From a virus (taxonomy: Duplodnaviria > Caudoviricetes): a DNA stretch of 62,486 bases. Positions 2,928-62,486 of this stretch are shown here, in pieces. Made by a program: the position numbers and the translations under genes. The notes below the pieces were generated by a model. That model had not been told where the DNA came from, made no database searches, and was given only the letters and a program-made list of their open reading frames with translations. The DNA lies in IMG/VR virus record IMGVR_UViG_3300045741_000082, positions 1 through 62,486 of that record. One strand, written 5' to 3'. Numbering within the stretch: the first letter of the stretch is position 1; each line of letters begins with the position of its first letter.

Positions 2928-3020
2928 ATTATTTTTCCTTTGTACCTTACTGTTGAAAACTCTACTAATTCTAGTAGTAGATTAAAGAATGCTAGGTAAA
3001 GCAGCTAGACTATTCTTTTA

Positions 3021-31084: not shown

Positions 31085-31835
31085 GTCCCATTGGGATTCC
31101 TTGCATAACTCCTCTTCTTTTCTCAACTGCAAGAATTCTTTCATATTCATTTCTCCAAAAAAGTAGGTTCTGATCACTTACAGAACTTCCATCCTCTCCA
31201 CGACTAGCTAATAGGATAGTATATATAGTGTAGTAAACACAAAATAGTCTATTATTAGCAGTATTGCCTCTAACTTGACTAAGATTTAATTCTTCTCTTA
31301 GTCTGTGTGAAGCATCTCTTATATGATCTTCTATGATCAAATTTCTAGTCTCTATATCTTTTCTATAAGCTTCAGGAAGATAAGTATCAATATTAAATTT
31401 TTTCTTTCTTACGTCATCTACAGTTGCATAGGTAGAAGTTAATGTTCCGATCATCCCAGCCATAGGAATAACTGTAAACCATTCATCTCCAAAATTAAAT
31501 TGTTGTCCACCAAGAATTCCTTGATAACTTATGATATAATTATCTAATGGAGTCAGTCCAGCAGGTATGCTCCAAGTAAATTCGTACTCGAAATCTTGTC
31601 CTGGGACCAATGCTCCTGTTAAAGTAGCTATGGTCTCTGGAACTGGCGTATTTCCTGAATTCAAAAAGGCTGGTTGTAAAATCTTAGCATTTGGTACTGT
31701 TGCGGTATCGACCTGAGTAGGCCTACCGTCGTTAGTAAAAATTGTCTTAAATTTTACGGTCGTGCCTTTAACAAAGACATAGGAATCTTTTGGTTCAGTT
31801 CTTGTGCCTGCTACTGAACTTATAACTCTAGACAT
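31077..31835 (-). CDS. Head-tail adaptor with N-terminal Ig-like domain
   Basis: Beta-rich N-terminal half followed by YATVDDV, typical of gp15/gp36-type adaptors. Confidence 0.65.
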   Translation of the reverse strand: MSRVISSVAGTRTEPKDSYVFVKGTTVKFKTIFTNDGRPTQVDTATVPNAKILQPAFLNSGNTPVPETIATLTGALVPGQDFEYEFTWSIPAGLTPLDNYIISYQGILGGQQFNFGDEWFTVIPMAGMIGTLTSTYATVDDVRKKKFNIDTYLPEAYRKDIETRNLIIEDHIRDASHRLREELNLSQVRGNTANNRLFCVYYTIYTILLASRGEDGSSVSDQNLLFWRNEYERILAVEKRRGVMQGIPMGRG

Positions 31836-43575: not shown

Positions 43576-43932
43576 TTATCTATAGCCTCCGTCCAGAATA
43601 TCTGGAACGGTGCCAACGCCTTTAAGCGTGTTTGCTAATCCATCTCTCATCATTTTTTGTTGATAAGGATTATCATACTTTGACTCTTCTACCTGGATCA
43701 GTGGTCTAAGAGTTATTTCTTTTATAAGTCCTGGATCAAAAGCAGTAACTACTGGAGTGCTCATAGAAAACGGTACTTTTTCAGAAATACTTAATTTCCA
43801 TTCTCCAACTAGCTTTTTCCAACTTTCATAACATTTGTCGTAACTGTTTTCACTAATACAACGAATGTGTTGATCATCGTGCCTTAGAATCCAAACCTCA
43901 TAAATTTGTTTTTTCTCCTCGGTTTTCGACAT
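43576..43932 (-). CDS. Hypothetical protein
   Basis: 118 aa, coupled to the portal stop codon. Confidence 0.7.
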   Translation of the reverse strand: MSKTEEKKQIYEVWILRHDDQHIRCISENSYDKCYESWKKLVGEWKLSISEKVPFSMSTPVVTAFDPGLIKEITLRPLIQVEESKYDNPYQQKMMRDGLANTLKGVGTVPDILDGGYR

Positions 43933-45680
43933 TACTTCTCCTCTTCTTTCTTAGGATTCTTTGCCCTCTTATCCATATTTTTACCAGGCTGTTTAGAGCT
44001 TTCCTCTGAATGCTTGGCTTTATTATCGATTTTAGGTTTAGGAACATCTGCTCCTGAATTTTGAGGCGGTGGCGCTCCATTAGGACCTAATCCATGTTCC
44101 TGCAATGTAGCTCCAGTTTGTGCCTGCAATTCTGTATCAAATTCTGTTTTATCCTGTCTATCTTTTCTACGTTTTTTGATTAGCTTCTGAATTTCACTTT
44201 CGCTCATGTGTGGATACAATTTACCAATAATATGTGTATCTTCTGTATCCAAGAGCTTGGCTTCCATCATTAGATCTTCTTTTTTCGTTTTAGGATCTAC
44301 AGTAAAATCTGGAATTTTATAAGTAATATCTAATTCTGCATTTTCTGAAAATTGTCTATCTGCACCCTTATTGTGGTGGGTATTCCAAAGCTTTTTAATT
44401 ATTTGAAATAATTGTTGCTCTCTCTCTTTAAACAGTCTAGATCGTCTTACGTTATCTTCTATAACTCCGATCTTTTCCATCATTGCTGCAAAACCTGATG
44501 CTGCAGTCTGTTGCTCATATTTTGGCCTTAGTCCGTGATTTATTCTAACCATATCGGTAATAGAATGAATTGTCTTAACTAAACCTACAATATCCGCAGA
44601 AGGATGAGCAAATTTAAAATCTCCTTTTTCTCCAACAGCAACAGCAGTATCTGGACCAAGACTCATACCTAACATAGCTGCGTCAGCATTCCCATCTCTA
44701 AAGATACCAAATCCTGAATCAAACGTTCTGTATTGTCCTGAAGCTCCTATACCACTTACTCCACCTAATCCACCAAATCTAGACTGTGCTGCACCGCCTT
44801 TTAATTGATTATAGTCATCTACTGGTCTTCCTTGTCTCAGTGAGGTAGATCTCTCTACTCCCTTAACAACAGGTACTCCGAATGACTGAAATTTAGCAAT
44901 GTGATTCAAGTCAGTAATTCTCATATTAATTGCGTGATTAGCATATATGAGAGGTTCATTAATAGGTAAAAAGTAGTAATGTGCTGGATCGGAATTAAAG
45001 AATGGTACTGCTGGTATCATTCCATAAGGATTTTTTACTTTGAATCCATTTTGTTTCTCATCGACTATTACGTGAGAATCTGGACTCCAATAAATCCTGT
45101 TAACTCTTCCTAACTCAGTTACGGTCCCTACTTCATTATAAGTAAGGCCTTTACTGGCTCTGGCATCATTTAACCCGTAGTTAGAAGGGCTTGGTATTGA
45201 GGCGGCTACTCCACCTCCAGATATACTTCCACTTTCATGTGCCCATCCACCAAACTTTGTACCAAATCCTATTAATAGTTCGGTAATGTAGTAAGGAGAA
45301 GCTCCATGACGAATGTCATATACTCCACCATGCATAATGTCTAATTGTACTCTTCCGCCTTGATTATCTTTAACTAGCTGTCCAGTGTCTGGATCTACAA
45401 AACTGACTTTAACTAGAACTGTTCCTAATAGTCTCGTCCAACGATCCAGTTTATCCATAAGCATCAGATATCGACTACTTTGTTGAATTTCTTCCCAAAG
45501 TTCTTGGTCTTCTTTTAAAAGTTTTCCTTTTTCGTCTACAACTTGATATATTGGAGATTCTTGATATAAGATAGAAACTTCATCAATGATTTCTTTTGTA
45601 AAATTCATTGGTAAAATTTGTTGTTTTTCTGGATTTCGAAATTGCCTTACTAGGTCTAACCAAACAAATTCATCTTGTCG
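43932..45680 (-). CDS. Portal protein, exon 2 (spliced product 627 aa)
   Basis: In frame from CGA at 45680 (RQDEFVW...PMNFTKEIID); SPP1-like portal motifs NPYGMIPAVPF, SFGVPVVKG and ASGFA. Confidence 0.88.
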   Translation of the reverse strand, partial: RQDEFVWLDLVRQFRNPEKQQILPMNFTKEIIDEVSILYQESPIYQVVDEKGKLLKEDQELWEEIQQSSRYLMLMDKLDRWTRLLGTVLVKVSFVDPDTGQLVKDNQGGRVQLDIMHGGVYDIRHGASPYYITELLIGFGTKFGGWAHESGSISGGGVAASIPSPSNYGLNDARASKGLTYNEVGTVTELGRVNRIYWSPDSHVIVDEKQNGFKVKNPYGMIPAVPFFNSDPAHYYFLPINEPLIYANHAINMRITDLNHIAKFQSFGVPVVKGVERSTSLRQGRPVDDYNQLKGGAAQSRFGGLGGVSGIGASGQYRTFDSGFGIFRDGNADAAMLGMSLGPDTAVAVGEKGDFKFAHPSADIVGLVKTIHSITDMVRINHGLRPKYEQQTAASGFAAMMEKIGVIEDNVRRSRLFKEREQQLFQIIKKLWNTHHNKGADRQFSENAELDITYKIPDFTVDPKTKKEDLMMEAKLLDTEDTHIIGKLYPHMSESEIQKLIKKRRKDRQDKTEFDTELQAQTGATLQEHGLGPNGAPPPQNSGADVPKPKIDNKAKHSEESSKQPGKNMDKRAKNPKKEEEK

Positions 45681-46562
45681 CTTTTGTTGTGGACTATATC
45701 TTCAACTAAGTAACTAGTTGCTTCGCTTTCTCGATGAGGGCATCCATTCTATATTTTTCATATAGATTAGGATATCTAGTATCATATTTTAGGTCTATTT
45801 TATAGAGCATACAAGGTATTATGTAATCTTTTATAATTTCTCTAAATTTTGCAAAATTAGTGGAGTTAAATTCTATGTAGAACTTTTTTCCACCCTTTTT
45901 AAAGCAATTATAAATTTTTATATCTATATCCCATACTTCTTTAAAATATTGTTTAATTATAAGATGTTCTTCATAAGAAAAACTTAATGACCAGATTCTT
46001 GCTCTTCTACTTAAGTACTTAGATCTGTCTTTTGGAGATGTCTGTAAACATAGTTGACCATCGTCCATGTACCAAACAGCTAAACCTAATGGATTTAACT
46101 TGTTTAATAATTCTCTAGTTACTTTTTTAGTGCCATTTGGGTAAAATTTTTCTCTTAACTTGTCAAAGTAAACTAGACAATTTGTGTTTAATTGCCAATC
46201 TTCTCTAGGAGTTTGTCTTATATTTACAGTTACTGGGTGTATTTGGAGTAGTATTTTTTTCTTAAACTCTAACAATTCTTTCTGCTCGTTACAATGACTG
46301 CACTTAAAGTAAGCAGTATGAGTAACTTTTTTTTTAATTATTGACGAGTCTCCTAAAACAGTACCTACCACAAATGCATCTAACTCTGAACTTCTTAAAC
46401 TATTTATGTTCACTAAAGGTTTCCCTTTCTATTAATATGATATTAAACTCATTAGTCTCTGAACCTTATATAACATTTCTATTATATCTTGGCTGCTGAT
46501 TGTTGTCAATGGACAATTTCCAGCAATTAACGAAGTTTAAAGAGGGCCGATTTAATTGGTTA
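45681..46562 (-). ncRNA. Group I self-splicing intron (IA-like, 882 nt) in the portal gene
   Basis: P AAUUGCUGGAAA (46528-46517), Q AAUCAGCAGCC (46501-46491), R GUUCAGAGACUA (46464-46453), S AAGAUAUAGUCC (45702-45691). The internal guide UCGGCCCUC pairs with ligated exons GAGGGU|CGA; the 5' exon ends in U and the intron ends in G. Confidence 0.95.
45706..46413 (-). CDS. Intron-encoded LAGLIDADG homing endonuclease
   Basis: VVGTVLGDSSI and LAVWYMDDG motifs; FYPNGTKKV and MLYKI. Confidence 0.93.
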   Translation of the reverse strand: MNINSLRSSELDAFVVGTVLGDSSIIKKKVTHTAYFKCSHCNEQKELLEFKKKILLQIHPVTVNIRQTPREDWQLNTNCLVYFDKLREKFYPNGTKKVTRELLNKLNPLGLAVWYMDDGQLCLQTSPKDRSKYLSRRARIWSLSFSYEEHLIIKQYFKEVWDIDIKIYNCFKKGGKKFYIEFNSTNFAKFREIIKDYIIPCMLYKIDLKYDTRYPNLYEKYRMDALIEKAKQLVT

Positions 46563-47711: not shown

Positions 47712-48022
47712 TATAGTGCTACCAAATGTAGTCTTCCTGCTCCACCAGTTCTAGTAACTCTTACAACTCTAACCAAGTGAGTATTATAAGTTAGTGGCAC
47801 AGTAGCCGTGAAAGCAGTTGACCCATAAAAATCAGTACCATTTGTTGAAAATTCTACTGTACCAGCCAAAGTACCGTCTGATTGAATCGTTACCTTTTCT
47901 GATACGTTACTTAGTTCTATCACTTCACTTGTGTTTGACGCATTTAGCAAATCAGTCAGTTCTAAATCCCCTACTAATGTAGGTTGTCTTACTTTCCTTG
48001 CTTGAGCTTTAGAAATAGCCAT
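47711..48022 (-). CDS. Small beta-sandwich protein, probably virion-associated
   Basis: 103 aa; GTVEFSTNGTDF...VVRVTRT. Confidence 0.6.
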   Translation of the reverse strand: MAISKAQARKVRQPTLVGDLELTDLLNASNTSEVIELSNVSEKVTIQSDGTLAGTVEFSTNGTDFYGSTAFTATVPLTYNTHLVRVVRVTRTGGAGRLHLVAL

Positions 48023-49644
48023 TAAATAACTCCTTTTACGACACTAAAATGCTGACCAGTATCGTGAAATAAATAAACCATCAAGTATCTTAAGGCATCT
48101 AATAACCCTTCATACCCTTCTGGTGTTTCATCGTAATCTTCTTTAAGGCTTCCGTTCTTACCCCTTTTAAATACTGCAGTACTTAAAGCATAAATAGTAT
48201 TAACACAATTTCTTGTAATAAATAATTTAGGTCTTTTTATGTGCTGCTTATTTTCATCAGTAAGTGGTTTTCCTTTTTGATCAAATTGTGGAAATTCTAA
48301 CCACAACCTTATCATATTTGCTCCAGTTTCCCTGTCTTGCTTAAGTCCTACTGGCCTTCTATCTTTTCCTAAAACAGCTTCAAAATCATCCCAAGCTGTT
48401 CTACCATTTAATTGAACCTGATCTCCAGAAATATCTGCTATGATGTCATTGCACCTTATATGGTGTTGTTTAGATATCTCTTTTAATTCAGACTTCCAAA
48501 TACTTATTGCTTGCTTAGTTAAGTCTTTTTCTTTGTCTATTATCTGCTGTGCTTGCATGTAGCTTGAAGTGTGTGGCGTAAATCTTTCATCGAAAATCAC
48601 CACATCTCCATACTTATTAACTTGTGCAAATATTGTACTAGCTGGTTTAGCAAAGTTGTGATCACAAGCAGCATATACTGGTCCTTCATCAGGATGCCAT
48701 ATATAATCTATAACATTCGGAAATCTATTAAAATCTGTTTCTTCTACTAAAAATCCAGGAAAACAACTATCAGAAACCGCCTCAAAATCTGCAAGATATT
48801 CTTGCTTAAATTTAACCAGCTTTCCAGACAATGCCGCTCTTCTGTACGCCGAATCTATTTCTTCCTTTGATTTTTCTGCACTTGACGATAGTAATGGATT
48901 ATCATAACTTGTTCTTTGAAAGGAACTCCATTCTGTCATATCGTTACTTACTTGAGCTTCTTCATCGAAGGTAATAGATACTTTCCCTTCTCGCTGTTTT
49001 TTTCCAGTTTGCCCATACAAAAATAACTTGTAGAAACTATTTTTTCCTCGTGGAGTACTGATAAATATAGCACTACCACTTTTATCCATCAAAGTTGGAG
49101 TTAGCATTTGAGTCCAGATATCTTCAAGAGAGGGGTTTAATGCCGCCTCATCCACAATGACTAGATCGTTTGCTTCCCCTGCCAAGCTATCTACGTTCTC
49201 CATAGATTTAGCTTCCAGAACAGAACCCCAAGGAGTCTCTAAATAATAGTCTCCTTTTTGGTTACGTGCTCTTCCCCCTCCAGGTTTTCCTGGACGAATA
49301 ATCTTTAATTGAATAACTAAGATATGATATAGTTCTCTAAACACCTTTTCGCACAAACTATAGTCAGGGGCTACTATCCACACCCTTCTATTCATTTGCA
49401 TTAGTACAGCTAAAGCTATCAAGGAGGTTAGTAGAGTTTTTCCCCATCGTCTTCCACAAGCTAGAGTTTTAAATCTAGCTATGTCTTTGATGACTTCTAA
49501 GTGTCCTTCATGTAAAGGCTGTATAAGCTTTCCTTGACTAGTTCTTACCTTGTTGTCACACAAATATTTAGCCAAACCTTCTATATCCAATTCATGGATT
49601 CTTAGAGGTTTACCTTCTACGTTAAACTGTTCTATTTGTGACAT
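48022..49644 (-). CDS. terL: Terminase large subunit
   Basis: Walker A CGRRWGKT, Walker B VIVDEAA, STPRG, FKQEYLADF and nuclease DALRY. Confidence 0.95.
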   Translation of the reverse strand: MSQIEQFNVEGKPLRIHELDIEGLAKYLCDNKVRTSQGKLIQPLHEGHLEVIKDIARFKTLACGRRWGKTLLTSLIALAVLMQMNRRVWIVAPDYSLCEKVFRELYHILVIQLKIIRPGKPGGGRARNQKGDYYLETPWGSVLEAKSMENVDSLAGEANDLVIVDEAALNPSLEDIWTQMLTPTLMDKSGSAIFISTPRGKNSFYKLFLYGQTGKKQREGKVSITFDEEAQVSNDMTEWSSFQRTSYDNPLLSSSAEKSKEEIDSAYRRAALSGKLVKFKQEYLADFEAVSDSCFPGFLVEETDFNRFPNVIDYIWHPDEGPVYAACDHNFAKPASTIFAQVNKYGDVVIFDERFTPHTSSYMQAQQIIDKEKDLTKQAISIWKSELKEISKQHHIRCNDIIADISGDQVQLNGRTAWDDFEAVLGKDRRPVGLKQDRETGANMIRLWLEFPQFDQKGKPLTDENKQHIKRPKLFITRNCVNTIYALSTAVFKRGKNGSLKEDYDETPEGYEGLLDALRYLMVYLFHDTGQHFSVVKGVI

Positions 49645-49670
49645 ACTCTTGCTCTTCTCAAATGTGTCGA

Positions 49671-50264
49671 TTAAGATTCATTCTTCTTTTTGCCGTGAAG
49701 GATATTGTTAATCTCTCGATACACTTCAACAGACTTATTATCAACTTCCATTTTTTCTGAGTAATCTCCACTAAGAGTTAACCAGATTTTGGCAGCAGCA
49801 TCAGATTTATCTATGGCCCTTTCTCTCAAAGACTCGATAACCTTAGCTCGTTTCTGTGCAGTAAACAATCCGTCTGCTCTTACATATCCCCAAACAGCCT
49901 CATCCCAACCCTCTTTTTTAACCCATTCTCTAACAGACCTCATTGTAGGTATACTTTTTAAAAGTATATCTTTTGATACTTCATCATCTGTGTAGCGAGT
50001 TTCAATTAGTTGTTTCAACTCTTCTACCATCTCAGTTAATGGAGGTAAGCTCTTTGGGTTAACTATAGTGTGAGCAGCCATAATTTCTTGTAGCAACTCC
50101 TGAGTCAACGTCCAGTTAGAATTTTTATTCGAAAGTTTTTTAACATTGTGATAGGCTTCTACTTGGGCTGCAGATTTCTCTATAGCCTCATTTTTATATA
50201 GCCTTAAATGTTCTCCAGAACTATCTTTCTTTGTGCTTTGATCTTTTTTGTCGTCTTCGCTCAT
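49671..50264 (-). CDS. terS: Probable terminase small subunit
   Basis: Directly upstream of terL; HTH-like SVREWVK, then helical VIESLRERA...AAKIWLTLSG. Confidence 0.65.
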   Translation of the reverse strand: MSEDDKKDQSTKKDSSGEHLRLYKNEAIEKSAAQVEAYHNVKKLSNKNSNWTLTQELLQEIMAAHTIVNPKSLPPLTEMVEELKQLIETRYTDDEVSKDILLKSIPTMRSVREWVKKEGWDEAVWGYVRADGLFTAQKRAKVIESLRERAIDKSDAAAKIWLTLSGDYSEKMEVDNKSVEVYREINNILHGKKKNES

Positions 50265-52903: not shown

Positions 52904-53105
52904 AAAGTACTGTCCCTGCTAGGCATTTGGTCATTAAGTGACCTTGGTGGTGAGGTATTAATCCTGTATTAACTGATCCTATTATTTTGAATAGGATTCC
53001 TCTTTCTGTTATGTCCGTGACTATTGCCTTAATGTGTTGATATCTCTGGTCTATTGGCTCTATTACGTCTCCGACCTTATAGTTTATTGGTGGTATATCT
53101 TTCAT
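52869..53105 (-). CDS. Small SH3/KOW-like protein with tag
   Basis: YKVGDVI; LAGTVLYGSK near the C-terminus. Confidence 0.72.
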   Translation of the reverse strand: MKDIPPINYKVGDVIEPIDQRYQHIKAIVTDITERGILFKIIGSVNTGLIPHHQGHLMTKCLAGTVLYGSKDKEHSKG

Positions 53106-53108
53106 CGC

Positions 53109-53456
53109 CTACCGAGACACTTTCTTGCTACTATCGGGTAACGCTTCCAGTGAGCACTGGGCGCTTCGCTCCCCAGCTCGGTTAGAACTCATCAAATCCA
53201 TACTATTGTCTTTCTTATCATACAATACCTTAATGGCTGGATTACAAGGCTCATATCTACTATGAACTATACTTTGACCTAACCATATTGGACTATCAGT
53301 ATAACCATTACTAGTATTTCTAAGCCTATAATGTCTATAAGGATAACTTGTAAAGGATGATACTTCCTCTATTTCTATTATCTCATATATTGCAGTTGTA
53401 CTCAGTTTACGAATCTTATCGCCCATCTTATACTTAAACTTATCAAAATCAATCAT
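53109..53456 (-). CDS. Small SH3/KOW-like protein with KxLY tag
   Basis: KYKMGDKI; PAIKVLYDKK followed by a short tail. Confidence 0.72.
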   Translation of the reverse strand: MIDFDKFKYKMGDKIRKLSTTAIYEIIEIEEVSSFTSYPYRHYRLRNTSNGYTDSPIWLGQSIVHSRYEPCNPAIKVLYDKKDNSMDLMSSNRAGERSAQCSLEALPDSSKKVSR

Positions 53457-53461
53457 GATTG

Positions 53462-53689
53462 TTACTTTCTCTTCGAGAGTTCTTGTCGGTTTTGGTTAAA
53501 TAGGATTTTGGTAGCTTTTTTATTTTCTACTTTTACTAAGTCCTTACGATCATTCCTTAAAAATACGTCATATACTGATAACTCTTCTATTTTCTTAGTA
53601 TTTTTATTGATATACAGAGTTTTCTGTTCTAATAGGTCTGGTAGTATATTAGTCTCATCTATCACATATCTGCCTTCCTTTTTACTCAT
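53462..53689 (-). CDS. Small protein with KILF tag variant
   Basis: KATKILFNQ near the C-terminus. Confidence 0.7.
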   Translation of the reverse strand: MSKKEGRYVIDETNILPDLLEQKTLYINKNTKKIEELSVYDVFLRNDRKDLVKVENKKATKILFNQNRQELSKRK

Positions 53690-53892
53690 ATATAACCTAA
53701 ACCTTTACAATTGTCAAATATATCTACAGTTTTTTTCTGTTGGAGGGAGGGACTTTAGGGAGGGTGGTATACTACTATATAATCAACAGATTATAACTTC
53801 AGTATAGTATATCACCCTTTTCTATTGCGCTTAATTCTTTTTGAGAATTAAGCTTATATCACCTTATTATATAATACTGAATTCATATTCTT

Positions 53893-53914
53893 TATGTGTA
53901 TATACTAAGTAAAC
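53893..53914 (-). promoter_or_regulatory. Repeated motif, copy 3
   Basis: GTTTACTTAGTATATACACATA in the divergent intergenic region. Confidence 0.6.
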
Positions 53915-54089
53915 TTTAAACATAGTTCTTGATATTTTACTAAAAGTAGGTTACTATTTGAAATTATAGGGTTATTTCTTAAAATATTTATTTTTAGTCA
54001 TATCCTCTAGTATAACTGATACTTATAATAAGTGTAAGTTACTATAAATGTAAGTATGAGTTTATTAACTTTAAGTAGAGGTAAATCAA

Positions 54090-54299
54090 ATCAAATATAG
54101 TGGAGAGTATAAATTATATAAAGATTTGTACGTAGTCAATAAAAGAATCTGTAAAGTCTATTTGCCGCCTTTATTTATGGAAGGGGATAAGTATTACTGG
54201 ATTTATTATGTTGACAATGGGGACGTTTCTATAGTAAAAGAAAAAGATCTGAAGCTTCTAGATAAAAAGATTAGTAAGGTGTTGTATGGGAAGAAATGA
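54090..54299 (+). CDS. Unlisted Tudor-like small protein with KxLY tag (start uncertain)
   Basis: Open frame ...YWIYYVDNGDVSIVKEKDLKLLDKKISKVLYGKK*; AGAGGT SD precedes ATC at 54090, with TTG at 54126 as an alternative start. Confidence 0.65.
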   Translation: MKYSGEYKLYKDLYVVNKRICKVYLPPLFMEGDKYYWIYYVDNGDVSIVKEKDLKLLDKKISKVLYGKK

Positions 54300-54606
54300 T
54301 ATTAAAATAGGTGCTCTATTTATAGTAGAATATAATGATAGAAAGTATCTAATAGAGTTAATTGCTAGTGATGTATATACTCATAGTTACTATTGTTATG
54401 ATCATATAAATGATACTTACATTACTGCTCATATTAGTGATTTTGATGATCCTAATTTAAGATTACCTACTAAAGCTGAGTTATTGCTTTATAAGAATAA
54501 AGATAGACATAATGTTTATATGAAAGATGGATTTACTTATAGTTATGGCTATAGTCTTGATGGTTTTCCTTGTAATACTAAAAAAGATGGTAAAAATGAA
54601 GTATGA
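54286..54606 (+). CDS. Small SH3-like protein with tag variant
   Basis: IKIGALF; KAELLLYKNK. Confidence 0.7.
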   Translation: MGRNDIKIGALFIVEYNDRKYLIELIASDVYTHSYYCYDHINDTYITAHISDFDDPNLRLPTKAELLLYKNKDRHNVYMKDGFTYSYGYSLDGFPCNTKKDGKNEV

Positions 54607-54823
54607 GGTTGGAGATTATTTAAGGCTAGGAGTTGATACATACATATATTTTAAAGTAATTGAAGTTAAAGAAGATAGATATGTTCTTAAACGATGTATA
54701 TCTGACGGTAAAACTATAGTAGCATTATTTGTTACTATTGATAGATTAAGTACTATTTGTAAAGTTAGTAAAACTGAAGTGTTATTAAATAGTTTTAATA
54801 GGAGGTATAAATGGATGAGTTAG
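54596..54823 (+). CDS. Small SH3/KOW-like protein
   Basis: Likely start MKYEVGDYL at 54596; degenerate tag KTEVLLNS. Confidence 0.7.
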   Translation: MKYEVGDYLRLGVDTYIYFKVIEVKEDRYVLKRCISDGKTIVALFVTIDRLSTICKVSKTEVLLNSFNRRYKWMS

Positions 54824-55137
54824 AAGGTAAGGTATTAGTAGCTAAACCAGGTAAGCAAAAGGAGTTTGAAGAGGCTATGGCTAATACAGTCAAAATAGCT
54901 CAAGGTACTCTTGGCTGGAAAGGACAAGCTGAGATGATGTGGGAAATAGGTGCTGCTGAAGTTATGTTTGGTATTAAAACTAAAAGTAAGAAAAAGGGTG
55001 TAGTTCAATTAGAAGATATGATTAGACAAGCTTACTTACAAACTATAATGGATAATGCAGAATGGGTTCCTGAAGAGCAAGCTAAAGGTAGACATCAGGC
55101 CAATAAGATTCTGTTTGGTGAGAAAGACCAAAAATAA
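54811..55137 (+). CDS. Small protein with KILFG tag
   Basis: AGGAGG SD; QANKILFGEK near the C-terminus. Confidence 0.75.
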   Translation: MDELEGKVLVAKPGKQKEFEEAMANTVKIAQGTLGWKGQAEMMWEIGAAEVMFGIKTKSKKKGVVQLEDMIRQAYLQTIMDNAEWVPEEQAKGRHQANKILFGEKDQK

Positions 55138-55158
55138 ATTTTTTTTAAAATTTTTAGT

Positions 55159-55653
55159 TTAGCTATTATTTTTATTACTTTTTTTAAGGTTATCCCTTGC
55201 CCACTTTGGTTGTAAATTTGTATAGTGACAAGCTTTCTTAACCTCTTCTGGGTTATTAAGATCGAACCAAGATAAAGGAGTTTTGTGATCTATATGCCAT
55301 TGACCATAATTATCTAGAGTCATATCTGGTTCAAATAAGTTGGTAATATGTTTTAGAAATTCACTATAAGTGCAACCTAAGTATTTAATTGCAGAAACAT
55401 CACTTAATTGCTTTTTCCATATGCCTCTAGCCCGTCTTCTCAAATTATTTCTAATTCTTTGCTCAGGCCTTTTATTGCTCTTTGCTATAGATCTTCTATA
55501 GGATTCTGAGTTGGCGTATCTATTTGGTCTATGCCTTTTATTATCACAGGTTTTACACCTACTCTGTATTCCATTAGATCTAGAAGAACATCTATAAAAT
55601 TCTTCTTTGGATTTCTTTTCATTACATGTAAAACAAGTATATAAAGATTTCAT
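55159..55653 (-). CDS. Free-standing HNH-type endonuclease (WHIDH family), paralogue of 30497-31084
   Basis: CFTC...CKTC, LGCT, NYGQWHIDHKTPL and HYTNLQPKWARDN. Confidence 0.87.
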   Translation of the reverse strand: MKSLYTCFTCNEKKSKEEFYRCSSRSNGIQSRCKTCDNKRHRPNRYANSESYRRSIAKSNKRPEQRIRNNLRRRARGIWKKQLSDVSAIKYLGCTYSEFLKHITNLFEPDMTLDNYGQWHIDHKTPLSWFDLNNPEEVKKACHYTNLQPKWARDNLKKSNKNNS

Positions 55654-55659
55654 AAAGAA

Positions 55660-55688
55660 ATAATATCATCTGGTGGGGTTAGTGTCAA
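55660..55688 (-). promoter_or_regulatory. Sigma-70 promoter giving a leaderless HNH mRNA
   Basis: TTGACA-N17-TATTAT with extended -10 TGn; ATG follows 6 nt after the -10 box and there is no SD. Confidence 0.75.
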
Positions 55689-55892
55689 TCGATTTTAAAA
55701 TTTTTTTAAAAATTGAGAAAGAGGGTTAGTACCCCTGGAGGGGTTAGGGGAGGTGACGTTTTTTGACCGTATCCCCTTCTGCAACAATCGTGCCAATGTC
55801 TCATTTTGATACATAATACGGATGTCTCATAATGATAAAAAAGCCCCTGTACCAGAACGATACAGAGGCCAAAGACATGGGGGAATGTCTTA

Positions 55893-56090
55893 TTATGACA
55901 CAGATGGGGTTGTCTGTGCCAATTTGATACACTGTTCTAGTTCATTTACTTCAACCAATTTTGTGTTATATTGTGCCTTAAGTGTTTCAAGTTGCAATTG
56001 TGCTGTATTGAGACGTGCTTCAATTTGAGACAACTGAATTTTCTTAGTGTTTAATTTTGATACATTAAGTTCTACATTAAATTTTCTCAT
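55893..56090 (-). CDS. Small coiled-coil protein
   Basis: 65 aa, AGGAG SD, heptad pattern. Confidence 0.65.
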   Translation of the reverse strand: MRKFNVELNVSKLNTKKIQLSQIEARLNTAQLQLETLKAQYNTKLVEVNELEQCIKLAQTTPSVS

Positions 56091-56154
56091 AATGATACTC
56101 CTATTATTTTAAATTAAGGCTATACCACAATAGTATAGCCTATGTTATTATGTA

Positions 56155-56397
56155 TTATGCAGTTGTAACTTTGGATCGAATAACTGCTTTCTGCTTTCTG
56201 ATATATCGAGCCACTGTCTCAAATCGAGTATATTGACCTGTTAATGCTTGAATAATGCCTACTACTGATTGTGCATAATCATTTGATGCAGCATAACCCA
56301 ATGTGATAAGCCAAGTCTCACCACGAGTCTCAATATGAGACTTTACTACTTCTTTTACTTGAGTACCTATTGATTGTTTATTGTTTATGTTATACAT
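56155..56397 (-). CDS. Small protein, possibly HTH-like
   Basis: AGGGG SD; FETVARYIRK; lies downstream of the -24/-12 element at 56450. Confidence 0.7.
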   Translation of the reverse strand: MYNINNKQSIGTQVKEVVKSHIETRGETWLITLGYAASNDYAQSVVGIIQALTGQYTRFETVARYIRKQKAVIRSKVTTA

Positions 56398-56726
56398 TTT
56401 ATTTCCCCTTGTTATAACTCACTTAATTGTGAATCATACTTACTACTATTGCATTATGAATGCCAACAATAGCTCAGTGAATTCAATAGTCTCAGTATGA
56501 TATTATGTTGAACTTATATACACTATTATGAGATTTTCTACTTATATTAGTAGTTTCAATAGGTTAAGTCACTGTAGAACTATTAGTCACTTTACATAGG
56601 TTTGACATACCATAATGATACGTTATCCGGTGTTGAGTTATGGTCTATAGGTATATAATCCGGAAACTGTATTATATTGAGACTGGAATAGGATTTGCAC
56701 CTATACCAGCCTGTATTGAATTTAGA

Positions 56727-57404
56727 TTACTTGACTTTTGCCCAATTTGTATTGGTATAGGACTTTTGGCCATGATACACTAGACCTATTTTATTATTCG
56801 GTCCTAGTGCAGCTACTAGATCGTCATTAGTTGCATCGGTATAACCTGCAGCCAACAGGTCAGTCTCAGATGGAAACACTTTGGAGTGTCTATGATTGAT
56901 ACAATCAATAAGGTGATCTTGCTTGCCACCGAAACTATATATCAGTCTAAAGTTATTAGGTATATTGCCATTATAAGACAACTCATTAAAAATCTGTATC
57001 ATTTTGGTATAGGCATAGAATCTCACATCGAGACACTTCTCAATAATCTCAATCCAAGACATGGCATAATCTTTGCTATAGAAGTCACCAGAATCATGTA
57101 TCCTTATGAGACACTTATTATCTTTTACTTGGGATTTCATGTATTTAAGTCTTATTTCGGCCACCATCAAATCAACAAAATTCTCGTTTTGAGTCAACTT
57201 AAGTCTTTCTTCGTAGGCATTCACTACATTCCCAAAACGATACGTACCACTTCGAGCATAGCAGCCTGTAGCGCAAACCCCTGCCATTGGACACGTCTTA
57301 AGTCCTGTATTAGACAAGAATGCAGGTATACCGAAGTTATACACGTCTATTCCATTTTGAGACGATTTTTTCATTTTCCCGTTTTGGGTCAATATACTAC
57401 CCAT
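56727..57404 (-). CDS. Gp88-like phage protein (Cys cluster)
   Basis: TCPMAGVCATGCYA, RIHDSGDFY, FYAYTK and PNNFRLIYS motifs. Confidence 0.8.
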   Translation of the reverse strand: MGSILTQNGKMKKSSQNGIDVYNFGIPAFLSNTGLKTCPMAGVCATGCYARSGTYRFGNVVNAYEERLKLTQNENFVDLMVAEIRLKYMKSQVKDNKCLIRIHDSGDFYSKDYAMSWIEIIEKCLDVRFYAYTKMIQIFNELSYNGNIPNNFRLIYSFGGKQDHLIDCINHRHSKVFPSETDLLAAGYTDATNDDLVAALGPNNKIGLVYHGQKSYTNTNWAKVK

Positions 57405-57582
57405 ATATCACCTCAACTTCCGATTTTAAGTATAGTTCTTCACCAGTATCATAGGCCACTTCGAAGTGAGCTGATGATTCACCACAACATCCTATGCCAT
57501 TGGCAGGATGCATACAATAAGGACAAACTTCAATTTCCTCAATGATATCAGCTACATGTAGTTTAATCTTATTCTGTCTCAT
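57397..57582 (-). CDS. Small Cys-rich protein
   Basis: CPYC...CCGE..HF. Confidence 0.7.
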   Translation of the reverse strand: MRQNKIKLHVADIIEEIEVCPYCMHPANGIGCCGESSAHFEVAYDTGEELYLKSEVEVIYG

Positions 57583-57583
57583 A

Positions 57584-57775
57584 TTAAGCCACCTTTCTAT
57601 TATCGTTATTAAATTTAATAATTAGTAGTTCTATTATGCAATCTTTAATAGTAGACCTATGAACTGATAGTTGCCCCAATATTTTAAGACTAGCATTGGG
57701 TCCTCTTGCTAGTTCCTTCGCTGTAAGAGACTCGTTATACTTTAATAATTTGTCCAGTTCTATTAGTGTAAGCAT
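57584..57775 (-). CDS. Hypothetical protein
   Basis: GAGGGG SD; first gene downstream of the -24/-12 element at 57868. Confidence 0.65.
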   Translation of the reverse strand: MLTLIELDKLLKYNESLTAKELARGPNASLKILGQLSVHRSTIKDCIIELLIIKFNNDNRKVA

Positions 57776-58598
57776 TGTATTTCCCCTCGTTATATTATTA
57801 CTATACTCATCGGTTTATTATTAAATAACTTTAATTAATTATTTAATATTTACATAATTGTATGTTATGCAGTATAGGTGCCAATCTCATATTGATATTT
57901 GTATGTAATTTCAAGCAGTTATATAATGTTTCAATAGTAGAATTTGTATAACTTTTAGTCAATTTAAGCATTATTAGTAATATAGTAATAATATCATATA
58001 CTTGTAGGCTGTATGAGTTATATACGATTTGACAGTCATTTTGAGACATAATCCGTAAGCTGTATCATTTTAGGACTGGCACGGTCCTTGCATGGGGTAT
58101 TCTTAGTGTCAATTTGATACAAAATCCGGAAGTTGTATCATACTGAGATGGCATGCCTATTGCATCTGTACTGTATTGAGGCGGCCCACACTAATACGTC
58201 TCATAACGATATTGGCATGAATAATGCATATAGCAATATCTATGCCATGTCTCATATTGAAACGTCTCAATTTGAGATGTCTCATAATGGGGTTGTCTCA
58301 TAAAGGGACTAAAAGAGCTAAATTCCTATAGAAAAAATTATTACTATATGTAATATATGGAGTAAGTATGTGTTATTATTGGATTATTTGTATATTTATT
58401 GTTATAAATTGTGTAAATAGTAGTAATATTAGTGGTTTATGTGTTATTTTTAGTAATAATTGTAAATTTATTAGGAATAACAGGGGTTTGAGTGAAACCG
58501 TAGTTCTTTTAGACAATTGTAAAATGACCTTAATTCTCATTATTCCTCAATATATACAACAACTTACACAAAAACTATCCTACATACCATGTCAAATA

Positions 58599-58611
58599 TA
58601 TCAACACCTTA
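58599..58611 (+). promoter_or_regulatory. IHF-type site upstream of the -24/-12 element at 58636
   Basis: TATCAACACCTTA matches WATCAANNNNTTR exactly. Confidence 0.6.
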
Positions 58612-58704
58612 TATCGTGTATATTACTTATAAACATGGCACCAAATATGCATATAGTTTACCGTATGGAAAACAAGCCTATATTAAATCTAAGGGGGGTA
58701 TAAA

Positions 58705-58944
58705 ATGATCTTAATGGACTTAAATAAGAGAGAGTTAATAAAGAATAAGCTACACAAAGATAAACTACCTAAATACTACTTTAGCCTATACCTGTTATAT
58801 AGGCTTAACGACTCTATTTATGTTATAGGCTATAATGACATTGACATTATCATTAGGTTAGAGAGCATATTTAAAGCATCTAACAGAGAAACGGCAGTTA
58901 CTAGTAGCTATCCTTTTGAAGTAATGGATTGGAGTACAAAATAA
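58705..58944 (+). CDS. Hypothetical protein
   Basis: AGGGGGG SD; first gene downstream of the element at 58636. Confidence 0.6.
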   Translation: MILMDLNKRELIKNKLHKDKLPKYYFSLYLLYRLNDSIYVIGYNDIDIIIRLESIFKASNRETAVTSSYPFEVMDWSTK

Positions 58945-59059
58945 ACATATTAAACTTGTTAAACGAACACAATGCAGAACTAGGACTTAAACCCTTAGTA
59001 GTAGAACAGCCACCAGAACCTATTGAAACTATTAACGAAGAAGACCAAGAGGCAATAGA

Positions 59060-59275
59060 ATGATAATATCTAAGTACATAACCATCAACGATACCATAAT
59101 AGACACTACTAATATAACTAGTGTAACCTATATACCAGAAACAGGCCCTACTGATGAGTACGACTATAACAGTAGAATGTGCGTAGTATTCAATAACGGT
59201 TATACTGTATCTATCCACTGTACTGAGAAACAGTATAATGACCTACGAATACATCTAGGAGCTTTTTTTATATGA
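59060..59275 (+). CDS. Hypothetical protein
   Basis: 71 aa with GAGG SD. Confidence 0.65.
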   Translation: MIISKYITINDTIIDTTNITSVTYIPETGPTDEYDYNSRMCVVFNNGYTVSIHCTEKQYNDLRIHLGAFFI

Positions 59276-59405
59276 TTAACTCTATTAAGTACTTTCTATT
59301 CTGTTTACTTATGGCTACTGTTATGGTGTGTTTGGTGTGGCCGACTGTCATCTCGGATATATTGCTTTACAGATTTAAGGGTTACATTAACAAAGAGAAT
59401 AACTA

Positions 59406-59630
59406 ATGCTTAAAATAGGCCAGTTTCCAATAGGTTATCAATTTAAAGAGGAAATCTACCCTAAAGAAGTGATAATGACAGTTATTGGATACGATTCACT
59501 ACACCATTCGTACAGGATTAGGTGGGTAGAACATGATGGAAAAGTTGCTGTAGGTCCTTATTACTCACACGAATATATAGCTACCAAAGAGCCAGTTGAT
59601 AAGAACTATAAACTACTATATGGAGTTTAG
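59406..59630 (+). CDS. Small SH3-like protein with KxLY tag
   Basis: FPIGYQF; ends KNYKLLYGV*. Confidence 0.72.
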   Translation: MLKIGQFPIGYQFKEEIYPKEVIMTVIGYDSLHHSYRIRWVEHDGKVAVGPYYSHEYIATKEPVDKNYKLLYGV

Positions 59631-59632
59631 TT

Positions 59633-59872
59633 ATGAAAATAGTAACTGAAAGTCAAGCTTGGGATATGATAACTAGAAGCCTTATAGATACTAGTAGAGA
59701 GACATTAGTAAATATTATAATTGGTTATTTACGAGAATATGGTGATAGTACAACAGGTAAATTTACAGTATCGGGATTAGCTAATGTATTAGAAAGTCTT
59801 TTTGATGATAAGTTTAAAGTTGTGGCTGATTCTAGTGCAGCCCATATCTTATATAATGATAAGAAGAGTTAA
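59633..59872 (+). CDS. Small protein with tag variant
   Basis: SAAHILYNDK near the C-terminus. Confidence 0.7.
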   Translation: MKIVTESQAWDMITRSLIDTSRETLVNIIIGYLREYGDSTTGKFTVSGLANVLESLFDDKFKVVADSSAAHILYNDKKS

Positions 59873-59874
59873 CT

Positions 59875-60093
59875 GTGTATAAATTAGGTGATTGCTTTAG
59901 AAACAAACACACAGGCCATCTAGTTGAAATCATTGAGGTTCATACCACATTTGATGGCGTTAACTACTATACTGTAAAGAAGTTAAACAAACCCACTATA
60001 CAAACATTTCAAGTTAACTACTCGTTATTACAAAATAATTACGAAAAAAGCAACTTGGCACAGGTCTTGTATAGTAATAAGAGTAACAAGTGA
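59875..60093 (+). CDS. Small SH3/KOW-like protein with tag variant
   Basis: YKLGDCF; NLAQVLYSNK near the C-terminus. Confidence 0.72.
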   Translation: MYKLGDCFRNKHTGHLVEIIEVHTTFDGVNYYTVKKLNKPTIQTFQVNYSLLQNNYEKSNLAQVLYSNKSNK

Positions 60094-60100
60094 GGTTATT

Positions 60101-60334
60101 ATGAAAATCCAATTAAGTGCAAAATGTAGCGATCTATTTAGTTGCTCTGTAACTGATAATAAAGACAATCTATTAGTTGATGGTTATGATGGATATGTGC
60201 CAGCATTTATGCCAGATGAGCATTATGGCGACTACGTAATACTTGATATTGACGTTAAAACAGGTCAAATCCTTAATTGGAGAAAAGATGCTGAAAAGTT
60301 AGTAAGACAATTCATTAAAGAAGAGACTAAATAA
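60101..60334 (+). CDS. Hypothetical phage protein
   Basis: GAGG SD; AKCSD...YDGYVP..MP..HYGDYVILDID. Confidence 0.75.
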   Translation: MKIQLSAKCSDLFSCSVTDNKDNLLVDGYDGYVPAFMPDEHYGDYVILDIDVKTGQILNWRKDAEKLVRQFIKEETK

Positions 60335-60690
60335 GAGTTTATTATGAATATATTAATACAAACCACACTAACTCTATTACTATTAAGCTTATCTATATTT
60401 GCTATAGTGTTATTAATACCATATTTTCCCTTATTCATACTTATATGGGCTATAAGCCAATATGTAACAGGAGCACAGCACAAATGAATAGATTTAAAGT
60501 CAATTGTATTAAAATACAACTATATTTACAGTCTTATATGAATTTCTTACGTAAAAGAGATTCTTTATGATTAAAAGAGTATTCAATACGTTAGTTCTTA
60601 TTTTAGGGTGTTATTTGTTGTTGGTGGCGGTTTCTTTAACCATAAACTTAATATACTTATATTTTAAGTATTTGTTTTAAGAGGTATTTA

Positions 60691-60909
60691 ATGGGTTTTA
60701 TTAATAGTAATGATAGTTATGGTATTTGGTACGATAGAGATAACGTAAAGCATTATGGATTAATAGGACTATACGATAGTGATACTGATCTAGTAGAGTT
60801 TATTATGCTACCTGACTACAAACGAATTATTATATCAATTGACAGTATTGATTTAGTACAATGTCCAATAGAAAAGAAAGCAATTAAGGTATTATATGAA
60901 AGTAAGTAA
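60691..60909 (+). CDS. Small protein with KxLY tag
   Basis: GAGG SD; ends KAIKVLYESK*. Confidence 0.72.
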   Translation: MGFINSNDSYGIWYDRDNVKHYGLIGLYDSDTDLVEFIMLPDYKRIIISIDSIDLVQCPIEKKAIKVLYESK

Positions 60910-61339
60910 ATTATTAATACTATTGACTTTAATACAAACAGCTTGCACTCCGATTGGAAAACCATTAATGCCAAGAACAAATCCTTTGGTAGTACCTTAT
61001 GTTAAACAATGGGAAAATATAACTAATAGAAAGCAGCACACACCAATTATAATAGGTACAGTAAGTGATGAATTTTTTGGTATTTGTTATAAGTCTAGCG
61101 ACCCTTATTATAATATTATTATTCTTAATAAAAACTTTTTCTATGGTTTAGATAGTACTGAAAAATTAGAATTAGTTATGCATGAGTTAGGACACTGTGA
61201 TTTGGGTTATGAGCACAATAGTAAACCTGCATTAATAGATGGTTGTCCTTATAGTATAATGAATGCTTATCTATTTAATTCATCATGCTTTAATGCTGAT
61301 TATGATCATTATATAAGTGAATATTTAAATGAAGAGTAA
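60896..61339 (+). CDS. Lipoprotein zinc metallopeptidase (metzincin-like)
   Basis: Signal peptide with lipobox-like QTAC; HELGHCDLGYEH zinc motif; Met-turn SIM. Confidence 0.78.
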   Translation: MKVSKLLILLTLIQTACTPIGKPLMPRTNPLVVPYVKQWENITNRKQHTPIIIGTVSDEFFGICYKSSDPYYNIIILNKNFFYGLDSTEKLELVMHELGHCDLGYEHNSKPALIDGCPYSIMNAYLFNSSCFNADYDHYISEYLNEE

Positions 61340-61387
61340 AATGTTAAGAGTTACAATAAAACAAATAACCTATAAAGGAGAGTTATT

Positions 61388-62486
61388 ATGAAAAGAATGA
61401 TAATTAGTTTAGCGGTATTGGCTGCTATTGGATGTTCGCCAAAGAAGGAAAAGGTAAGAATAGTAAATGGCAAAGATGGTACAAATTGTTCTACCGAAGC
61501 TGCAGTAAATGGAGTTTCTATCAAATGTGGAGATAGTGAACCTTTAACAGTTACCAATGGTAAAGATGGTGCTAAAGGTGATCAAGGTCTTAAAGGAGAC
61601 AAAGGCGATAAAGGAGATCAAGGTTTTACAGGACTAACTGGTTCTGTAGGTGCCACTGGAGCACAAGGTATTCAAGGCGTAGCTGGTACTAATGGTAAAG
61701 ATGGAGTTAATGGTAAGAATGGACTAGATGGTAAAAATGGGTCTCATGTTTATTCAGCTAATAGAAATCCTTTAGTAACTGATTCTGGAGCTAATGATGA
61801 TGTGTTTATAAATACAGTTACGTTTGATTTTTATCAAATGGTGGCTGGAGTTTGGACACTTAAAGGAAACATGAAGGGTTCCAATGGTTTAAATGGTAAA
61901 GATGGAGCAACTATTTATAGTGCCAATAGGCCACCAGTAGACACAGAAGGTTCTAACAATGATCTATTTGTTGACAATACTACTTTTAACTTTTATCAGA
62001 AAGTAAATAATATGTGGGTACTTAAAGGAAATATCAAAGGCGCTAAAGGAGATACTGGTAGTCAGGGTATAGCTGGTACTAATGGTTCTAATGGATTAAC
62101 AGGTGCAACGGGAGCTAATGGGGCGGTAGGCCCTCAAGGTCCTAAAGGCGACACAGGTAGCGTTGGCCCAACTGGAGCTACTGGCCCTAAGGGTGCAACT
62201 GGAGATGTCGGTCCTCAAGGCCTTATTGGTCCTCAAGGCCCTGCAGGTACTAGTGGAGCAAACTTCACAGAATATACATTTGCTGCACAAAAAGTTTGTT
62301 ATAAAATCAATGATCTATATTTTTTGCAAGAAAGTACTTCTATTAAGGTATTTAGTGATAGTTTATGTAAGACTCAAGTTGCAGCACTTCAAGGTGATGA
62401 TGTGACTCTATATCATAATAAAGTACTGTATGTCGGAGATGAAATTGTTAATGATGTGAATTACTCTCAAGCAAAGATGGCTATTA
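61388..62486 (+). CDS. Collagen-like lipoprotein (runs off the window; absent from the ORF track)
   Basis: AAGGAG SD; MKRMIISLAVLAAIG-C lipobox; long G-X-Y tracts (GKDGAKGDQGLKGDKGDKG...) and two repeated globular modules. Confidence 0.85.
   Translation, partial: MKRMIISLAVLAAIGCSPKKEKVRIVNGKDGTNCSTEAAVNGVSIKCGDSEPLTVTNGKDGAKGDQGLKGDKGDKGDQGFTGLTGSVGATGAQGIQGVAGTNGKDGVNGKNGLDGKNGSHVYSANRNPLVTDSGANDDVFINTVTFDFYQMVAGVWTLKGNMKGSNGLNGKDGATIYSANRPPVDTEGSNNDLFVDNTTFNFYQKVNNMWVLKGNIKGAKGDTGSQGIAGTNGSNGLTGATGANGAVGPQGPKGDTGSVGPTGATGPKGATGDVGPQGLIGPQGPAGTSGANFTEYTFAAQKVCYKINDLYFLQESTSIKVFSDSLCKTQVAALQGDDVTLYHNKVLYVGDEIVNDVNYSQAKMAI

Follow-up and report, generated by a model that had tools for sequence, protein, structure and literature searches.

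A cluster of -24/-12 elements in the window

The window analysed here is the full record of IMG/VR contig IMGVR_UViG_3300045741_000082, a linear stretch of 62,486 bases with 35.6% G+C and an estimated completeness of 54%. PHROG matches show it to be, by its predicted genes, an uncultured contractile-tailed phage (myovirus). The structural genes all lie on the minus strand and span 484 to ~50.3 kb, and from ~53.5 kb onward only small open reading frames (ORFs) occur, in short blocks of alternating strand. Within this latter part stand the elements that are the subject of this study, here called S, which follow the motif TGGCAYNNNNNNTGCW (TGGCAY-N6-TGCW) and have the form of the -24/-12 promoters recognized by sigma-54 (RpoN). 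They accompany short leftward operons and a non-coding hub, from which leftward and rightward gene blocks diverge (Table 1).

Nine exact matches to S were found when both strands of the window were scanned, all of them within 2.9 kb (55780-58651), compared to a mean of 0.37 and a maximum of three in 100 dinucleotide shuffles of the window. The initial annotation had listed ten sigma-54 elements for this region, and all ten are present at their positions and on their strands, nine as exact S and one (56684) with a single mismatch. With none of the nine exact copies outside the 2.9 kb, a similar density elsewhere in the genome is refuted. When the spacing between the two boxes was varied from N2 to N10, N6 gave nine matches in the window and 16 and 18 in two relatives, G001 and G002, respectively, while all other spacings gave 0-1, except for N7 in G002 with five. 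Chance or base composition as the source of the cluster was ruled out by the shuffles together with this spacing scan. The bare GG-N10-GC skeleton was only mildly enriched in the window (204 against 144 expected), and the signal therefore resides in the full boxes. Relaxing the C of the -24 box added six sites across the window, of which 56684 alone lies inside the region; since five similar variants occur elsewhere, this site is not significant by itself. It stands in one of the three copies of a repeat, D3, of which the two others contain an exact S.

Eight of the nine exact copies face a gene on their own strand, and no opposing gene intervenes; four of the nine lie within 130 nt of an ORF start. 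The leftward copies at 57868, 56450, and 55780 are placed one before each short operon. The annotated position of 56450, 57868, and 58636 upstream of genes led by a Shine-Dalgarno (SD) sequence was borne out, with an SD-like AAGGGG, GAGGGG, or AAGGGGGG before each of the three ATGs (distances in Table 1). The rightward tandem copies at 58077, 58149, and 58213 are followed by an A+T-rich leader, which forms a non-coding stretch of ~330 nt (~58300-58630), and then by the copy at 58636. Together with the leftward copy at 58232, the one at 58213 forms a symmetric pair, TGGCAT-N6-TGCA-TAT-AGCA-N6-ATGCCA, on the boundary between the leftward and the rightward block. ORFs listed within the hub are of odd composition and have neither an SD nor a family match. 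Besides a leader, the three tandem rightward copies and the A+T-rich stretch (58077-58704) might also constitute an origin; their layout recalls promoter-primed phage origins such as the T7 primary origin.

Conservation in relatives and agreement with the sigma-54 consensus

The two relatives were found through the GP88-family protein of the window, to which theirs are 55% identical. G001 (86.9 kb) is 53% complete, and G002 (175.8 kb, 41% G+C) is 100% complete. Their GP88 loci contained 11 and 13 S matches, respectively, against 0.10 expected. Of the 17 S copies in the whole of G001, 16 occur in the first 16 kb, and 17 of the 18 copies in the whole of G002 occur in 48.3-70.7 kb, while a reversed-pattern control yielded 0 and 1 matches, respectively. 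In G002, an ORF on the same strand starts 17-55 nt downstream of eight of the 18 copies, and the orientation of S tracks the gene strand. Among the ORFs so preceded is one of 694 aa that resembles GHKL-type ATPases (HATPase_c) weakly, at an E value of 2.7e-4 that misses the Pfam cut-off. Each relative has one symmetric pair, at 3562/3580 in G001 and at 59133/59153 in G002. Among the proteins of 52.9-62.5 kb in the window, only the GP88-family and HNH proteins are conserved in G001 and G002, and the other small ORFs had no tblastn match in either; S and the palindrome P described below are thus better conserved than the surrounding genes.

Information beyond the motif itself was found in the 43 S copies of the window's lineage as G/A after TGGCAY, T before TGC, and T/A after TGCA. 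At positions that were not selected for, 496 distinct S copies from 119 other viral loci had T before TGGCA in 61% and T before TGC in 80% of cases, while TGGCAY was followed by G in 57% or A in 38% and then by a purine in 74%. The resulting composite is TTGGCAY-R-R-N3-TTGCW, and the window's lineage shows the same trend more weakly. The sigma-54 consensus of Barrios (1999) is said to agree with this composite.

In a chromatin immunoprecipitation (ChIP) study of Salmonella sigma-54 (PMC3844500), 19 of 29 intergenic sites, as counted here from the rows listed, fit the S pattern, and TGGCAT is about equally common in those sites and in the phage copies. The promoters of glnK, pspA, hypA, and rsr given there share TGGCAY, two purine-rich positions next to it, TTGCW, and the exact GG-N10-GC with the S copies of the window. 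The same study reports at least 70 sigma-54 sites in the Salmonella genome, 41 of 70 intragenic and some antisense, so that intragenic and antisense sites occur there as in the window, whereas the density differs, with 9-10 sites per 2.9 kb in the window against roughly 70 per genome. Other features set the window apart from bacterial sigma-54 promoters: no recognisable gene for a cognate AAA+ activator was found near S or in the whole of the complete G002, a palindrome abuts the -24 box with no enhancer at the usual 70-150 bp upstream, and the pair is symmetric and face-sharing.

Exact spacing, clustering, conservation, gene-ward orientation, and the consensus at unselected positions make it well supported that S copies are functional sigma-54-type (-24/-12) elements, as predicted from their letters, and not products of chance.

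A symmetric pair shared among phages

The pair pattern TGGCAY-N6-TGCATA-N0-2-WGCA-N6-RTGCCA was searched in viral and prokaryotic collections and occurred in at least 119 viral contigs, compared to ten matches in 596 billion bases of prokaryotic genomes, the latter mostly on short contigs of metagenome bins. An RpoN DNA-binding domain is encoded in seven of the ten prokaryotic bins that include a contig with the pair. The pair-bearing viral loci range from 32 to 65% G+C and hold 2-17 S copies each, and 465 S matches were counted in 49 pair-bearing records against 12 of the reversed control. In six complete phages of 43-61 kb, which have a family A DNA polymerase in common, S is found only in a single hub, a few hundred bases long, in each genome. 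The hub is the meeting point of leftward and rightward gene blocks in G15, G38, and G50, according to crude ORF calls. A pair-neighbour protein and a pair-rich locus had no match among cultured phages, and locus L034 matched them in tRNAs only.

Among 145 face-to-face S neighbours within 120 nt, gaps of 2, 3, and 4 nt occurred 48, 70, and 15 times, respectively, in statistics that are biased by the choice of loci for holding one such pair. The variable gap along with the invariant GG-N10-GC points to two independent asymmetric readers rather than to a rigid dimeric repressor. By the convention of a GC at -13/-12 and a start ~12 nt downstream of the C, gaps of 2-4 nt would place divergent starts 17-19 bp apart, with the -12 boxes between them and each -24 box in the first transcribed bases of the other promoter. 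For the pair in the window, starts are predicted at ~58239 (+) and ~58221 (-), 18 bp apart. The same distance is reported as the preferred start distance of symmetric bidirectional sigma-70 promoters (Warman et al., bioRxiv 10.1101/2020.01.31.928960). These are like the S pair in their opposite-strand elements and common central melting region, and unlike it in being built from sigma-70 -10 elements; sigma-54 is not mentioned there. In the S pair, by contrast, each -24 box lies within the early transcribed region of the other promoter, and the starts are predicted ones.

In the jumbo record G035 (335 kb), 18 pairs occur within 18 kb (258.8-276.6 kb, locus L177), mostly between ORFs, and for ten of them the distance to the next plus-strand ORF measured 62-105 nt. 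The repeated cassette consists of the pair, a conserved block (ACTCTAAAAAGATATCTTC.GAAGTAA), an SD, and a gene, and several cassettes stand behind a hairpin-like repeat. They recall the promoter-early stem-loop (PeSL) cassettes reportedly described by Arbiol et al. in 2010 for T4-type phages, in which a terminator hairpin and a promoter likewise precede successive small ORFs of a plastic early region; the likeness extends loosely to the window. PeSL cassettes are said to carry sigma-70 early promoters, whereas those of G035 carry the symmetric sigma-54-type pair and a second conserved block.

Palindrome P and sigma-70-type signals

The lineage-specific palindrome P has the core TCTCA-N3-TGAGA and is present in 16 copies in the window, nine of which lie in 55799-58277, the best being GTCTCAATATGAGAC. 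Mononucleotide shuffles yielded ~8 copies per whole window, and only the 3-nt spacer was enriched. At four promoters (55780, 57868, 58149, and 58232), the centre of P is found 7-10 nt upstream of the first T of TGGCA, near positions -33 to -36 counted from the predicted start. At three more S copies, the equivalent place is taken by a degenerate P or by a TGAGAC half-site. P is dense in the relatives as well, with 22 copies in the first 4.2 kb of G001 and ~23 in 50.4-58.8 kb of G002. To our knowledge, P fits none of the operators of NifA (TGT-N10-ACA), Fur, LexA, and IHF. Family and tblastn searches among the small hub ORFs gave no nameable candidate for a P-binding protein.

Loci L050 and L097 (G024 and G045) combine pairs with two CTGCCA-N3-TGGCAG palindromes to one side and, ~35 nt away on the other, a consensus sigma-70 promoter (TTGACA-17-TATCAT and similar). 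This whole module recurs many times within 13 kb. S seems to be accompanied by a different 6-N3-6 palindrome in each lineage.

The region, which the initial annotation assigned to sigma-54 rather than sigma-70, also contains sigma-70-type signals: the HNH gene is directly preceded by TTGACA-17-TATTAT at 55688-55660 (-), matching the sigma-70 consensus in 11 of 12 positions. The usual start, 7 nt past the -10 box, falls on the A of ATG 55653, and as the gene also has no SD, its mRNA looks leaderless. The HNH protein had four tblastn matches dispersed across the G002 genome, as would fit a mobile homing-type gene that brings a promoter of its own. In 53.5-60.5 kb as a whole, sigma-70-like matches were not enriched (44 against 43.1 expected). 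S as a sigma-70 element itself, with TTGGCA as the -35 hexamer or S as a 16-nt spacer, was rejected: only 57884-57857 (TTGGCA-16-TACAAT) and 58630-58657 (TAAACA-16-TATAGT) fit, and the logo of the 43 copies from the window's lineage contains neither a -10 nor a -35 hexamer.

Gene content of the window

The DNA of 55000-59500 had no match among cultured phages, where no close relative was found, and the large terminase (TerL) reached at best 29% identity, to Microbacterium phages. A host-directed Atlas search with the capsid protein returned viral clusters only. Of sequencing runs, one DNA run from a sediment metagenome, probably the source, was listed as containing the region, and no RNA run was. 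Known RNA families were absent from 53000-62486, and tRNAs from the window and G002. The small ORFs beside the hub matched no Pfam, PHROG, or NCBIfam family.

The GP88-family protein (PF17338, function not assigned) contains the cysteine cluster C-x6-C-x3-C; it had no informative PDB match (best E 0.49) and no NCBIfam match. Its homologue in G001 (2464-3135) contains a sense S at 2691 and an antisense S at 2905, at positions non-homologous to those of the window, and in G38, an unrelated phage of the polA type, another homologue follows an S at a distance of 0.9 kb. As a common factor of pair loci the protein was rejected, being near a pair in only eight of the loci searched.

Homing-type genes are scattered throughout the structural module. 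They include a LAGLIDADG homing endonuclease (45706-46413, minus strand; phrog_11023, E 1e-16), downstream of the portal on the terminase side, and a second HNH/endonuclease VII-like ORF (30497-31177, minus strand) in the tail module, which overlaps the next ORF by ~100 nt. Two predicted lipoproteins occur on the plus strand in the rightward block: one of 147 aa (60896-61339), metallopeptidase-like with an HELGH motif and weak PF18894 and phrog_87 matches, and a collagen-like one with G-x-y repeats (61388-62485; >366 aa), which is truncated by the contig end.

Table 1. Positions of genes, S elements, P copies, and other features in the window
Feature	Position	Strand	Remarks
Baseplate wedge	13251-16826	minus	PHROG match
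Tail sheath	26499-27941	minus	PHROG match
Major head protein	41245-42576	minus	PHROG match
Portal	43932-45608	minus	PHROG match
Large terminase (TerL)	48022-49644	minus	PHROG match
HNH/endonuclease VII-like gene	55159-55653	minus	phrog_1035, E 4e-19
S1, TGGCACGATTGTTGCA	55780-55795	minus	perfect -24/-12 match; predicted start ~55769; 126 nt upstream of HNH gene
P copy	55799-55811		core TCTCA-N3-TGAxx; abuts S1 on its 5' side
P copy	55825-55837
Terminator-like hairpin	55842-55870	minus	3' of the 80-aa and 65-aa ORFs
Leftward small ORFs after S2	55893-56397	minus	80 aa (56155-56397) and 65 aa (55893-56090)
P copy	56085-56097		start of 65-aa ORF
P copy	56328-56340		best palindrome, GTCTCAATATGAGAC; inside 80-aa ORF
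S2, TGGCATTCATAATGCA	56450-56465	minus	predicted start ~56439; 52 nt upstream of ATG 56397
P copy	56490-56502		25 nt upstream of S2
Repeat D3	56655-56699 (+), 58048-58092, 58121-58165		45 nt; ATAATCCGGAA..TGTAT.A..TGAGAC, then S box
S3, variant, TGGAATAGGATTTGCA	56684-56699	plus	A for C in -24 box (TGGAAT); in repeat D3; antisense to GP88-family gene
GP88-family gene	56727-57404	minus	PF17338, E 3e-44
S4, TGGCATAATCTTTGCT	57062-57077	plus	within GP88-family gene, antisense
Leftward small ORFs after S5	57397-57775	minus	63 aa (57584-57775) and 61 aa with Cys cluster (57397-57582)
Non-coding hub	57776-58704		~930 nt between divergent gene blocks; S5-S10 and several P copies
S5, TGGCACCTATACTGCA	57868-57883	minus	predicted start ~57857; 92 nt upstream of ATG 57775; precedes 63-aa, 61-aa, and GP88-family genes
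P copy	57885-57897		abuts S5 on its 5' side
S6, TGGCACGGTCCTTGCA	58077-58092	plus	perfect match; predicted start ~58103; first of three rightward tandem copies; in repeat D3
P copy	58136-58148		abuts S7 on its 5' side
S7, TGGCATGCCTATTGCA	58149-58164	plus	predicted start ~58175; second rightward tandem copy; in repeat D3
S8 and S9, symmetric 35-bp pair	58213-58247	S8 plus, S9 minus	S8 58213-58228, S9 58232-58247; 3 nt between -12 boxes
Two adjoining P copies	58250-58277		58250-58262 and 58265-77; first abuts S9 on its 5' side
S10, TGGCACCAAATATGCA	58636-58651	plus	predicted start ~58662; 53 nt upstream of ATG 58705, first rightward gene
Rightward small-ORF block	58705-62485	plus	target of rightward S copies

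Probable sigma-54 promoters and rival explanations

The S elements are probably genuine -24/-12 promoters for the host sigma-54 holoenzyme. The holoenzyme would bind each S as a closed complex and wait there for an activator to open it. Leftward, the hub would then drive three short operons (between 57775 and 55159); rightward, it would drive the small genes from 58705 by means of three tandem promoters and a proximal one. The pair at 58213/58232 would fire both ways and thereby act as the sigma-54 counterpart of a symmetric bidirectional sigma-70 promoter. A dimeric regulator would likely dock at P beside the -24 box and switch the promoters on or off.

The sigma-54 DNA-binding domain (PF04552), sigma-70 region 2 (PF04542), and T7-type RNA polymerase (PF00940) were matched neither in the window nor in G001 or the complete G002, the last as a weak negative whose control matched nowhere. 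With no match to a sigma factor or polymerase, phages of this lineage appear dependent on the host polymerase.

Several observations weigh against sigma-54 promoters at S. Sigma-54 promoters are silent without an ATP-driven AAA+ activator, and the activator domains PF00158 and PF14532 were absent from the same three genomes at E values up to 1 or 10, so that the search for an rpoN or activator gene, proposed with the initial annotation, came out negative. PF00158 gave three matches in 49 other pair-bearing records (15 of them at least 90% complete), all weak and partial. Since no recognisable AAA+ protein was found in the window or in the complete G002, the activator would either come from the host, as an enhancer-binding protein that is free in solution or bound to a site, or be a phage factor that escaped recognition, and reliance on a host activator is risky and unusual for a phage control hub. 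An activator without its DNA-binding domain does switch on diverse sigma-54 promoters from solution (PMC3844500). Also on the opposing side are two of the ten copies in the window, 57062 (+) and 56684 (+), which run antisense into the GP88-family gene. Given these two and the symmetric pair, not all ten annotated elements are gene promoters. No rpoN showed up in three of the ten prokaryotic bins with the pair: one is archaeal, one is a Streptomyces genome, and one is a 1.8 Mb Desulfovibrio bin that is incomplete. Ten cultured marine podoviruses related to G38 (SIO1 and Lentibacter, Celeribacter, CRP, and Pelagibacter phages) yielded two isolated S matches and no cluster.

To the same side belong the tandem arrays. 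In G008 (49383-49800; loci L152 and L115), six identical 41-bp pair units stand in tandem, and tandem pair arrays look more like operators or iterons than promoters. The pairs of G035 precede genes that all run one way, so that the palindrome seems to be the unit there and not a directional promoter. These pairs, together with the tandem arrays of G008 and of L014, with its twelve S copies in 300 bp, are the main facts in favour of the rival explanations, while the single, oriented, gene-proximal copies of the window's lineage are the main facts against them. Behind the six pair units of G008 lies a second array of 25-bp repeats in ~4-5 copies (CACTGGCTGGCCCACTGAGCTCCTT), and the double array looks like an iteron- or centromere-like block of sigma-54-type boxes.

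That pairs and arrays are sites of a dimeric non-promoter protein, such as immunity operators, replication iterons, or partition sites, with single copies as half-sites or decayed remnants, would agree with the 35-bp palindromic form of the pair and with array palindromes 7-8 bp apart in several phages (back-to-back gaps of 7 and 8, 21 times). The single hub per genome in the six complete 43-61 kb phages and the origin-like A+T-rich stretch of the hub in the window point the same way. The window, G001, and G002, however, have one pair per record, and their 7 to 16 other copies are single and gene-oriented. The half-to-half gap varies from 2 to 4 nt and GG-N10-GC never does, which is not the behaviour of a rigid dimer, and no neighbouring protein is conserved across loci. 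This explanation is considered very improbable.

A protein specified by the phage, be it an unrecognised sigma-like factor, polymerase, or transcription factor, could also have copied the specificity of sigma-54 and leave the host factor uninvolved. The strong bias of the pair towards viral contigs over prokaryotic genomes marks it as a phage feature, many phage proteins here have no family, and divergent phage sigma factors such as T4 gp55 are said to escape profile searches. ORFs within 2.5 kb of the pair at 120 loci, however, contained no family present at more than 23 loci, and eight whole phage genomes had no protein family common to all (BLAST 1e-3), which argues for a universal host reader. 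Carriers of such diverse base composition, with sizes between 43 kb for polA-type phages and 335 kb for the jumbo type, are better matched by one conserved host reader, and the agreement with sigma-54 reaches four unselected positions. A phage-encoded reader is therefore regarded as improbable.

Quite improbable, too, is a sink or roadblock role, in which host sigma-54 or the holoenzyme would bind S but phage mRNA would be made only in a minor way. Such binding would titrate sigma-54 or core polymerase, insulate sigma-70 promoters, or keep polymerase at the DNA end that enters the cell. The closed complexes of sigma-54 holoenzyme are stable and stay silent without an activator (background in PMC3844500), and no activator gene was found in the phages examined. 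Arrays of identical units like those of G008 and the dense copies of L014 would suit a sink, and three S copies of the window lie directly downstream of sigma-70-like hexamer pairs within a repeat. Against this stand the mostly single, directional copies of the window's lineage at 17-55 nt before start codons, a placement that a sink does not need, and the low number of ten sites for titration. The sigma-70-like hexamers next to S are, moreover, neither kept in the relatives nor enriched.

Precedent for the preferred reading, in which S copies are promoters of the host sigma-54 holoenzyme, comes from Pseudomonas phage YuA, for which PMC10914365 reports dependence on host sigma-70 and sigma-54 and a mapped start at one sigma-54-like promoter, P015. 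YuA is described there as a virulent phage without an RNA polymerase of its own. Unlike the window, its genome contains no exact S, no cluster, and no pair, and one-mismatch matches numbered five against 19 of the reversed control. In a literature search with subscription journals and supplementary files outside its scope, no dense sigma-54 promoter clusters or symmetric sigma-54 pairs were found for phages, with YuA as the only case of sigma-54 use.

Implications

What is new here is known promoter chemistry at an unusual density and in a symmetric form, in phages without a recognisable copy of the obligatory activator. Among bacterial sigma factors, sigma-54 alone needs an ATP-driven activator to initiate transcription. 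The usual description of phages has them relying on sigma-70 or on polymerases of their own, and a control region made up almost wholly of sigma-54 sites raises the question of what opens the promoters during infection. Either infection would turn out to be gated by the state of the host, or sigma-54 would be activated in a new way. It is unlikely, although worth stating, that many unrelated phages run their hubs on host sigma-54 through the symmetric pair without an AAA+ protein of their own, be it by a new AAA+-free opening (e.g., by a small phage protein on P) or by wiring to a stress-activated enhancer-binding protein of the host. If true, this would mean an AAA+-free route to open complexes or an infection that is conditional on the state of the host. 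The S motif could aid host prediction by indicating rpoN-bearing hosts, and the 35-bp symmetric unit is a candidate for a compact bidirectional sigma-54 promoter.

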